DNA from: Alphaproteobacteria bacterium
Lineage (GTDB): Bacteria > Pseudomonadota > Alphaproteobacteria > CAAHEQ01 > UBA3637
NCBI GenBank assembly: GCA_017513365.1
Contig: JAFXFY010000141.1
Span: 1 to 27,876 of the forward strand
Direction: 5' to 3'
Length of the DNA: 27,876 nucleotides
The notes under the pieces were generated by a model. That model worked only from the letters and a program-made list of their open reading frames with translations, was not told where the DNA came from and did not search any database. A program made the translations under genes and the position numbers. The stretch's first letter is position 1. Every line of letters starts with the position of its first letter. Of this stretch, positions 1 through 1,608 are shown in pieces.

Positions 1-145
1 TCGGTTGAACCGGTTGAGAAACAGCCGTGCTTGGAGCCGGTTGAGCTGTCGGTATCGGTTGTGGTTCGGCCTTTGGTGTTGTTTCCAAAGAAACACTACC
101 GGTTTGTTGATCATTTAAATTTTGAGGCTTTTTAGAAAAAAACAT
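1..145 (-). CDS. 5' part of a gene running off the window edge; Pro/Gln-rich N-terminus, possibly bactofilin-like
   Basis: ATG at 145-143 with AAGGA Shine-Dalgarno upstream; open to the edge: MFFSKKPQNLNDQQTGSVSLETTPKAEPQPIPTAQPAPSTAVSQPVQP. An MF(F)SK start plus Pro-rich tail recalls alphaproteobacterial bactofilins, but no core domain is visible. Confidence 0.6.
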   Translation of the reverse strand, partial: MFFSKKPQNLNDQQTGSVSLETTPKAEPQPIPTAQPAPSTAVSQPVQP

Positions 146-173
146 AGGTATCCTTTCTGCTAAATTTTTATTC

Positions 174-202
174 ATTGTGCCATATTTTAAAACGGATTGC
201 AA
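174..202 (-). promoter_or_regulatory. sigma70-type promoter for the leftward partial gene
   Basis: Minus strand TTGCAA (202-197) - 17 nt - CACAAT (179-174). Confidence 0.5.
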
Positions 203-206
203 GGAT

Positions 207-250
207 ATTTTATCACCCAAAAAAACGGTCGTTTTTGTGGGTGATAAAAT
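207..250. repeat. 44-bp near-perfect palindrome; left copy of an inverted repeat pair
   Basis: ATTTTATCACCCA-AAAAAACGGTCGTTTTTG-TGGGTGATAAAAT; the 13-bp outer arms are perfectly complementary. Confidence 0.9.
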
Positions 251-368
251 CCACTAAAAATCAAAAGGTTGTAAATTTTTAAACTTTTTCAGACAATTTC
301 TTGATTTATTATTAAAAAATTAACTTTTTTATGGCATTTTTTTATTATTAAAACACAAAAACATCGTC

Positions 369-401
369 TATCACAAAAACGACCGTTTTTTGGGTGATAA
401 A
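369..401. repeat. Right copy of the inverted repeat pair
   Basis: 372-401 CACAAAAACGACCGTTTTTTGGGTGATAAA is the reverse complement of 209-239 except for a T-run of 6 versus 7. Confidence 0.9.
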
Positions 402-423
402 TTAATAAAAAAAAGGAGAAAAT

Positions 424-1608
424 ATGCAATTAAAATTTGAAACTGGCCGTTCTATGGTTGAAATCATTGGTGTTTTAGCGGTTGCTGGCGTATTAAGCAT
501 TGGTGGTATTATGGGGTATTCCTATGGTATGAATAAATATCATGCCAATGAAGCCATTTATGATGTAAATATGCGTATGATTGATGTGGCCACTCATGTG
601 ATGCGAGGTGTACAAATTGACCAATTAGATTCGTCTTGGGGCGAGGCAAAAAGTGGATATGATATTGAATTATTCCACGATTCCGATTCCGAACCATCTA
701 TTATTGTTAAACAAGTACCGACAGGTGTTTGTAAAGAAATTTTAAAGTCTACACCGGATATACAAGATATTTTTGTTGGTTCCGAAAATGCAGACGGAAT
801 GGATGGCAGTTGGTATTTAGGCGACAATGAACACATTTGTGATGGCTCAGATAAAGATATGTTATTTGCTTTATCTCCGGAAATTTTAGCCGGATTTAAT
901 CCGGACGATGAAGCGTATGTTGAACCCGAAGGAACGGCAACAATACCTCCTCAATTAGAATGCTATTCTAATGCCGATTGCCGACCGGATAAACCGATTT
1001 GTGATAATGGTACGTGTGTAGAATGTACCAAAGACAGTCATTGTCCCAGTGACGAACCAAATTGTAATCCAAATACTAAATTGTGTACGGCTTGTTATGG
1101 TGAACCCAATGGGGCTCCTTGTGTGTTAGCCGGCAAAGATTACGAAGGTATGTGTTATGGAGATTCAAATTATGCATGTCTTAATTGGTGTGGTGAAACA
1201 CCATTGGTTGGCAGTTGTTCGTATATGAACAATTACTGTAAAAATCAAGGCGGTCGAGCCACAATTTATCAGTTAATGTTGATTTCGGATAATCCGCTCT
1301 ATTGTCAAACGCAAAAAGCGGCTGGGAATGAAGTTGTAGCTAAGTATGGTAGTAGTGTCGTATATACCTATACTGGAAAATGTCCGGATACCGAACGATA
1401 TAAAGGATTATGGAGTAAATTGAGAAATGGGTGTCCAGATAGAACCGGGAGATATATCAGTAATGTTGACAGGGTTGAAGTCAATAGAAGTGGATCATTA
1501 ACGGGATCTGAATGCGGTTCTGGAAACTGGTGGAGTTCTGGCGCTTGTTATGATGATGTTCAAGCCATCATTGATGCCTATGATGCAGCGAATCCAATAA
1601 CGGAGTAA
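424..1608 (+). CDS. Type IV prepilin-like protein with Cys-rich C-terminal repeats (putative minor pilin/adhesin)
   Basis: SD AAGGAG. N-terminus ETG|RSMVEIIGVLAVAGVLSIGG is a class III signal-like segment with E5 and a hydrophobic helix. Tandem C-x4-DC-x4-P-x-C repeats (ECYSNADCRPDKPIC; ECTKDSHCPSDEPNC). Confidence 0.8.
   Translation: MQLKFETGRSMVEIIGVLAVAGVLSIGGIMGYSYGMNKYHANEAIYDVNMRMIDVATHVMRGVQIDQLDSSWGEAKSGYDIELFHDSDSEPSIIVKQVPTGVCKEILKSTPDIQDIFVGSENADGMDGSWYLGDNEHICDGSDKDMLFALSPEILAGFNPDDEAYVEPEGTATIPPQLECYSNADCRPDKPICDNGTCVECTKDSHCPSDEPNCNPNTKLCTACYGEPNGAPCVLAGKDYEGMCYGDSNYACLNWCGETPLVGSCSYMNNYCKNQGGRATIYQLMLISDNPLYCQTQKAAGNEVVAKYGSSVVYTYTGKCPDTERYKGLWSKLRNGCPDRTGRYISNVDRVEVNRSGSLTGSECGSGNWWSSGACYDDVQAIIDAYDAANPITE

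Follow-up and report, generated by a model that had tools for sequence, protein, structure and literature searches.

In the Hin/Gin family of serine invertases, dyad-symmetric sites carry an asymmetric 2-bp centre that sets their orientation. The recombinase gene of these systems is found inside or beside the one segment that is inverted, and recombination depends on an enhancer bound by Fis. Gin belongs to the G segment of phage Mu, and the Hin switch of the Salmonella flagella also carries a promoter. The fimS switch of type 1 fimbriae in E. coli spans a few hundred bp, has 9-bp repeats and is served by dedicated tyrosine recombinases, FimB and FimE, encoded beside it. In Mycoplasma penetrans, each of the mpl (P35) lipoprotein genes is switched by inversion of an adjacent short promoter (PMC2268961, citing Horino et al. 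2003). The mpl loci, scattered along the chromosome of an organism with a reduced genome, form a large multigene family of surface proteins, and two ORFs near mpl genes are the candidate recombinases (PMC2268961). Closest to the locus described here is the Mpi (multiple promoter invertase) system, known from Bacteroides fragilis and further gut Bacteroides, in which one small serine recombinase switches dispersed surface-structure loci ON and OFF in varying combinations, by way of invertible promoters with related inverted repeats. This conserved enzyme inverts the promoters of 7-13 capsule loci, and when it is deleted the promoters are locked (PMC10403206).

The window analysed here is the entire contig C125 (27,876 nucleotides, 27.9 kb) of an alphaproteobacterial assembly, G000, which has 1.27 Mb in 252 contigs and 39% GC. 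An earlier note, made from the sequence of the window, had described a pair of inverted repeats in front of a gene for a Cys-rich pilin and had offered three explanations for them: a phase-variable inverton, a MITE-like element or paired operators for DNA looping. We give the first of these a probability of roughly 0.87, in the form that positions 207-403 are an invertible promoter of the Mpi type, acting as an ON/OFF switch of a pilus subunit. Four lines of evidence speak for it, namely, the occurrence of both orientations at the locus, an exact inversion of a sibling element, matched centres in 10 of 12 complete elements and the presence of a gene for an invertase of the Mpi family.

An inverted-repeat search of the window returned two 23-nt arms, 217-239 and 372-394, which are 96% complementary and lie 132 nt apart. 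The longer arms of the earlier note (209-239 and 372-401) are reached from these by extension with one indel in a T/A run. Its statement that each copy is itself palindromic also holds, since the left arms 207-227 and 230-250 are 95% complementary and the right copy is an imperfect palindrome. As single-stranded DNA, the left site (205-252) folds with -16.3 kcal/mol (z = -7.4), and the right site with -5.5 kcal/mol (z = -1.75). The pattern TATCAC-N(0,30)-GTGATA occurs twice in the window, with 0.01 occurrences expected. The left site has the core CGGTCG (226-231) with the central dinucleotide GT (228-229), and the right site, in which the inner arm is degenerate, has the core CGACCG (380-385) with the central dinucleotide AC (382-383); the two centres are reverse complements of each other. 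Since the sites are palindromes in themselves, they form direct repeats just as they form inverted ones, and only the asymmetric centres define how they are oriented relative to each other. Judging from the sequence, the left outer arm (207-227) would be fixed with the ATPase flank and the right outer arm (384-403) with the pilin flank, and the left inner arm (230-250) would travel with the segment. The core of the left site coincides with the junction position in inverted forms of the locus. The right copy does end close to the pilin gene, at 401-403 with the ATG at 424, and the element ends, read from the sequence, have no direct repeat, in agreement with the reported absence of a target-site duplication. 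Two other roles of the palindromes were considered and dropped: as terminators, because a T-run is absent after both and the terminator scan of the window was empty, and as an RNA family, because Rfam gave generic hairpin noise and nothing near gathering scores. Coordinates of the features are collected in Table 1.

Table 1. Features of the putative promoter switch and its surroundings (positions in the window)
Feature	Position	Strand	Description and basis
T2SSE-family pilus/secretion ATPase gene, 5' part	1-146	-	start codon 146-144; rest on contig C69
Putative fixed ATPase promoter, TTGCAA-17-CACAAT	174-202	-	outside the segment; predicted by reading the sequence
Left recombination site (putative)	207-250		44-bp near-perfect palindrome TTTTATCACCCAAAAAAACG-GT-CGTTTTTGTGGGTGATAAAA
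Predicted invertible segment	230-381		between the central dinucleotides; inner arms and ~120 bp of AT-rich promoter DNA
Candidate promoter, TTAACT-17-TATTAT	320-348	+	-10 at 343-348; points toward the pilin gene; promoter scan and conservation
Right recombination site (putative)	367-403		imperfect palindrome TCTATCACAAAAACG-AC-CGTTTTTTGGGTGATAAAT
Ribosome-binding site of the pilin gene, GGAG	415-418	+	sequence
Putatively controlled gene, pilin-like, 394 aa	424-1608	+	ORF; class-III-type leader ETG/RSMVEIIGVLAVAGVLS; Cys-rich C-terminal part

More copies of the locus were obtained by looking up the neighbouring proteins in public assemblies, and the evidence on orientation is a comparison between assemblies, not within one population. 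The earlier note had proposed to compare orthologous loci in relatives, and this comparison revealed both orientations. The orientation of the window is present in nine other assemblies (L042, L043, L083, L107, L108, L116, L117, L118 and L119). The first five of these share at least 98% identity with the window, and all five are in what we read as the ON state; L116 and L117 are ~95% identical and have another pilin gene downstream. An inverted segment beside the same ATPase-side flank was found in at least three cases, namely, G004:C108 (the sister species), L115 and L114. G004:C108 follows the plus strand of the window from 2 to 239 with 96% identity and then the minus strand from 404 to 265 with 94% identity, so that, at the core CGGTCG, the outer arm continues into the distal end of the segment. 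L115 has a junction of the same type, and two more places are similar to it. Both contigs end inside the segment, and their second junction lies beyond these ends. L114 is inverted and has the centre AC instead of GT; with the distal part and the second site missing, its switch is probably locked. The flanks of L114 and L116 are 96% identical, and their segments have opposite orientations. Wherever the segment is inverted at this locus, the assembly belongs to a relative ~95-96% identical to the window. Since the assemblies with at least 98% identity are all ON, inversion of the window copy could be a rare, evolutionary event and not a high-frequency one; switching within one population is a prediction. 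A fold-back or chimeric assembly as the cause of the inverted contigs was rejected, because what follows the site is the opposite end of the segment and not the reverse-complemented flank. An assembly artefact is also unlikely because the inverted junctions recur in independent assemblies and because the perfect repeats, of ~19-23 bp, are shorter than the final k-mers (k = 141 according to contig names).

An exact inversion was observed at the rpsA-pilin locus, the site of a sibling element on contig C239 of G000, for which ten assemblies with an identical RpsA protein were compared. Between L095 and L096/L100 the flanks and outer arms are identical, and the 150-bp stretch enclosed by GGAACG and CGTTCC in L095 is the perfect reverse complement (0 mismatches) of that in L096/L100; otherwise, these loci are collinear, with 97% identity over 7.7 kb. 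The L096 orientation is also found in L098, L101, L102, G000 and G004. In L099 a solo site replaces the element, and in L097 and L103 the entire site-pilin module is missing. One further copy (L104:3634-3823) is a mosaic in which the rpsA-side flank and the left part of the segment are of the C239 type, and the right end and right site are of the C156 type. It may be a recombinant of sibling invertons or an assembly chimera.

BLAST and nhmmer searches revealed further copies in G000 at C94:903-1097, C239:2358-2554, C156:11081-11278 and C130:1-92, the last on a contig that begins inside the segment, as well as a degenerate copy at C122. Their common architecture is a site, a ~125-bp AT-rich segment and a second site. 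A variant, type B, with arms TGTGTCAAAAAAACG-TC-CCTTTTTTTGA, is present at C56 and C92, so that G000 has five type A elements, four of them complete and one truncated, and two of type B. Copies also occur in the same genus in G004 (a MAG from roe-deer caecum), G005 (a human-gut MAG) and G001. There are ~5-7 copies per genome, and the dispersed copies are ~73-95% alike. When one genome of each of 185,579 species was scanned with a degenerate site pattern, matches were confined to this genus and three isolated cases. The elements of G000 share an A-tract / CG-NN-CG / T-tract core. The distance between centres is 153-156 bp in type A (141 bp in one) and 129 bp in type B. In 10 of the 12 complete elements the centres are reverse complementary (GT/AC, AA/TT, TC/GA and the palindromic AT/AT); those of C94 and C156 in G000 do not match. 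Every complete element adjoins a gene start, mostly that of a pilin-like gene (leader G/RSMVE-hydrophobic), in other cases that of genes for some Cys-rich secreted proteins, one ankyrin-like protein and one uncharacterised protein (G004:C113). Beside the partial copies C130, G005:C46 and G005:C71 no gene was identified. The genome-wide repeat search suggested in the earlier note, in which many dispersed copies were to indicate a REP/MITE family, did find dispersed copies, but these constitute a family of invertons. The MITE/REP reading does not fit elements that number only ~5-7, stand beside surface-protein genes and lack target-site duplications.

Several other observations concern the distribution of sites. 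Solo sites are located at L099:4850-4895, at two positions of G004:C149 (L026/L068; 202-246 and 3043-3090) and in G005:C6 (L066:3676-3719; L072:398-440), in each case immediately 5' of the ribosome-binding site of a promoter-less gene. In G004, alaS is bracketed by two solo sites, and the genes flanking those sites bracket a single element (C94) in G000. A type A element of G004 (L074:3580-4449) lies in the OFF orientation before a 219-aa ankyrin-like gene; in G000 (C33:468-502), 34 bp replace this element and most of the ankyrin-like gene. A search of JGI metagenomes with an exact 41-mer of the left flank gave no match, and a scan with the degenerate site pattern gave a few related contigs, none of which represents this locus. 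Upstream of the ATPase orthologs in G001, G005 and G002 the inverton is absent, which leaves these loci outside the comparison of orientations.

As to the promoter, the earlier note had pointed to a weak TTGTAA-17-GACAAT at 269-297. This sequence is present, but it is probably not the pilin promoter, its -35 being not conserved in relatives and lost in G004:C118. The better candidate is probably the hexamer pair within the block that is conserved in the alignment of all segments and corresponds to window 300-348, TTGATTTATTATTAAAAAATTAACTTTTTTATGGCATTTTTTTATTAT. On contigs C13 and C19 of G001 this block is found without sites, immediately 5' of pilin genes, and its last hexamer is a perfect TATAAT, ~22 nt away from the ribosome-binding site. 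The promoter scan of the window region found 2 promoters where 1.8 were expected, which in such AT-rich DNA is by itself not above chance, and therefore the call at 320-348 rests on conservation and on homology to the fixed G001 promoter. Type B segments have a perfect TTGACA-17-TATTAT at the equivalent position relative to the right site. In the two type B elements of G000 (C56:2025-2177 and C92:1071-1225; L092, L093), with centres 129 bp apart, this promoter points away from the pilin gene, which would accordingly be OFF; contig C56 ends 2 nt past its element. In the window, a promoter outside the switch has no room, because only ~21 nt separate the right site from the pilin ATG. The candidate promoter, of the sigma-70 type, probably fires rightward through the right site, and the window copy would then be ON for the pilin. 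In G004:C108, L115 and L114 the pilin would be OFF and transcription would be directed toward the T2SSE ATPase gene. The putative promoter of the ATPase gene itself (Table 1) is identical in the other assemblies shown; it is absent from the output of the promoter scan because it matches the consensus at only 8 of 12 positions. Across loci, the conserved promoter block faces the adjacent gene in about half of the cases and the terminator of a convergent gene in the other half, an arrangement that is sensible for invertible DNA alone.

The ATPase ortholog of the sister species (G004) matches Pfam family PF00437 (T2SSE) with 104.8 bits. One sequence, L002, joins contigs C69 and C125 and thereby links the two halves of the ATPase gene, and the complete 452-aa gene is present in L083 and L107, with the exact L083 protein found in one contig only. 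Gene callers give the ORF one of three lengths among the variants (452, 477 and 497 aa). An inverted segment accompanies the longest of these, in L115, and one of the two 477-aa calls, in L114; the other 477-aa call (L116, L117) goes with the window orientation; as 477-aa calls occur with both orientations, ORF length is no marker of orientation. The contig begins (window 1-60) within a short tandem-like repeat, GAACCGGTTGAG / GAGCCGGTTGAG, which corresponds to the Pro/Ala-rich N-terminal region of the ATPase. On the other side, the pilin-like protein has no match in Pfam. Its gene is among the 30 of G000 with a strict pilin leader motif, five of which have an element within 400 nt. In strains 94-95% identical to the window (L106:5152-5436, L109:2624-2744) homology to the pilin starts at window 427, just past the ATG, and a GC-rich structured leader and ffh are found upstream in place of the inverton and the ATPase gene; the regulatory module has been exchanged at the pilin start codon. 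In L118 and L119 (~2100-2230, equivalent to window 424-1608) the pilin is reduced to a 37-aa ORF by an internal deletion of the equivalent of window 506-1568, and the inverton is intact and in the predicted ON orientation.

The earlier note had found no recombinase in the window, and none is present among its ORFs; one is encoded elsewhere in the genome. The sole PF00239 recombinase of G000 is a protein of 198 aa, P0001 (C239:7551-8144), encoded 5 kb from the C239 sibling element and a short distance 5' of another pilin gene. It consists of Resolvase (PF00239) and HTH_7 domains with an intact YIRVSTDKQ serine motif, and scores 293.5 bits over residues 1-197 against the NCBIfam model NF009949 ('master DNA invertase Mpi family'), the equivalog cut-off of which is 272. 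Its best relative of known structure is Gin invertase. There are only two tyrosine recombinases (PF00589) in G000; their best scores are with XerD and XerC, and models of tyrosine invertases give them 31-55 bits against cut-offs of 221-222. Based on family membership and on this exclusion, we infer that P0001 is the enzyme acting at the sites. In G004 and G005, both with well-conserved sites, its orthologs reach 99% and 78% identity, respectively; in G001-G003, which have degenerate or rare sites, the values are 53-63%. The 99% identical ortholog in G004 (L055, G004:C144:6246-6839) is interrupted by a premature TGA at the Cys87 codon, which could reflect a sequencing error, a variant within the population or a pseudogene; further recombinase paralogs, of 52-57% identity, are encoded in G004. 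Of 24 genomes from this family, 16 encode homologs of the serine recombinase, in up to 11 copies; of 16 genomes sampled from other families of the class, only one does, and the match there is weak. The Mpi-like recombinases have expanded in the family, as many as 11 matches being found in a genome of 1-2 Mb (e.g. G006, G008, G009 and G023), and neither sites nor elements adjoin the recombinase genes of relatives. Such a family-limited expansion would fit acquisition by horizontal transfer in the gut, and the Mpi-like system may have been transferred to this alphaproteobacterial family from gut Bacteroidales.

Taken together, these data suggest a scenario in which the Mpi-family recombinase would bind each site as a dimer, pair the two sites, cut at the central dinucleotide and rejoin the ends after a 180-degree rotation. 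In the orientation of the window, the promoter would drive transcription across the right site and on into the pilin gene (ON), and in the flipped orientation, the pilin gene would be without a promoter and transcription would be directed toward the divergent pilus ATPase gene. One enzyme probably serves the 5-7 switches of a genome, which are placed before a subset of the ~30 pilin-like genes and before other surface-protein genes, and several switches under one enzyme would create combinatorial variation of the surface.

Part of the data may also be viewed as the traces of a mobile promoter cassette, MITE- or integron-cassette-like, in which a unit of ~200 bp, or a site together with its promoter, changes its locus. 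It would do so either through large rearrangements between sites or by being excised and integrated at solo sites, inversion being a side reaction. Such mobility would account for dispersed copies that are ~73-95% alike, for solo sites 5' of promoter-less genes (two in G004:C149, others in G005:C6 and L078), for the full, solo (L099) or empty (L097, L103) state of the rpsA locus, for sites whose halves have arms of different types and for the coincidence of sites with rearrangement breakpoints between G000 and G004 around alaS. At the 3' end of thrS, too, there is a full element in G004:C7 and a solo site in G005:C6, beside pilin genes that may be orthologous. However, neither target-site duplications, as judged from the element ends, nor a transposase accompany the elements, and the sites are inverted, not direct, so that a serine recombinase would invert and not excise. 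Moreover, presence and absence involve the entire pilin module, not the 200-bp unit alone, and the exact inversions are more simply explained by an inverton, which makes the mobile cassette a very unlikely account of the locus. Even less credible, to the point of being extremely improbable, is that the DNA is static, with the palindromes serving as paired operators of a dimeric transcription factor, possibly with looping, for the divergent pilin and ATPase promoters, and the orientation differences being old fixed rearrangements. Each site is a dyad-symmetric 40-mer, as dimer operators typically are; the sites are promoter-proximal, solo sites are found just 5' of ribosome-binding sites, and all five conspecific assemblies have one orientation at this locus. 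On the other hand, an exact reverse complement of 150 bp between assemblies 97% identical elsewhere would not be expected of operators, nor do operators need constant spacing or reverse-complement centres, yet 10 of 12 elements have such centres; at about half of the loci the conserved promoter faces away from the sole adjacent gene, and an invertase of the Mpi family is present. Binding of the recombinase could itself repress or loop, giving the sites a dual role.

A different question is which activity inverts the segment. Inversion by XerC/XerD-like tyrosine recombinases, or by RecA between short repeats, instead of by the Mpi-like enzyme appears distinctly unlikely. In its favour, the link between the serine recombinase and the sites is a predicted one, the recombinase gene is not adjacent to the switch in the window, an inverted copy occurs in G004 despite the premature stop in the recombinase ortholog, and palindromic arms with a short spacer generally resemble the core sites of tyrosine recombinases. 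Against this, the two tyrosine recombinases are best matched by XerD and XerC, the housekeeping resolvases of chromosome dimers, and perfect repeats of ~19-23 bp are a poor substrate for RecA. The serine recombinase exceeds the Mpi equivalog cut-off and is encoded beside a pilin gene 5 kb from a sibling element, its divergence parallels that of the sites across the genus, and G004 has the further paralogs of 52-57% identity. The Mpi-type inverton might also be part of something larger, although we consider this rather unlikely: a genome-wide network of promoter allocation, in which a few cassettes are shared among many promoter-less surface-protein genes with solo sites, and one Mpi-like invertase would redistribute the cassettes via inter-site inversions or via excision and integration. 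If true, such a network would explain the solo (L099), full (L095) and empty (L097) states of the rpsA locus, the sites with mixed arms, the mismatched centres of C94 and C156, the mosaic L104 and the rearrangements bounded by sites between the sister species.

The inverton also explains contig breaks and variable ORF calls at these loci, such as those of the ATPase at 452, 477 and 497 aa. The site consensus, the centre, the spacing and the orientation-specific junctions could serve as markers of phase variation in metagenomes.

Compared with known systems, the mechanism is not new; new are the host and the gene context. Like fimS, the switch is a probable invertible promoter directly 5' of a pilus-subunit gene, with a predicted ON/OFF phase variation, but the tyrosine recombinases of this genome are XerC/D-like only, and the sites are long palindromes common to several loci. 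With the mpl genes of M. penetrans, the candidate recombinases of which are reportedly tyrosine recombinases, it shares individually switched surface-protein genes, in an unrelated organism and with a different candidate recombinase. The resemblance to Hin, Gin, Cin and Pin lies in a small serine recombinase with a C-terminal HTH, for which Gin is the best match among solved structures, and in dyad-symmetric sites with asymmetric 2-bp centres (GT, AC) in inverted orientation. Unlike in Hin/Gin, the recombinase gene is remote (contig C239) and probably serves many sites, the sites are ~40 bp instead of 26 bp long, with arms of ~19 bp compared to 12 bp in hix/gix, and NCBIfam places the protein with Mpi. 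With Mpi itself the system has in common a single small serine recombinase, the role of which is here predicted, and several dispersed invertible regions per genome with related inverted repeats and candidate promoters, located at surface-structure loci of a gut organism, as well as a recombinase above the NF009949 cut-off. The Bacteroides Mpi repeats presumably share a core close to ARACGTWCGT, which would resemble the AAACG-NN-CGT core found here. The present system differs from that of Bacteroides in that the host is a genome-reduced uncultured alphaproteobacterium and not a member of Bacteroidales, that the controlled genes would be those of pilin-like and Cys-rich surface proteins and not capsule operons, and that the sites are ~40-bp near-palindromes, accompanied by solo sites and type B elements. 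The strategy of 'one master invertase, many invertible promoters' of gut Bacteroides would thus extend to an uncultured, genome-reduced gut alphaproteobacterium, in which the switches would gate members of a pilin-like family of ~30 genes.
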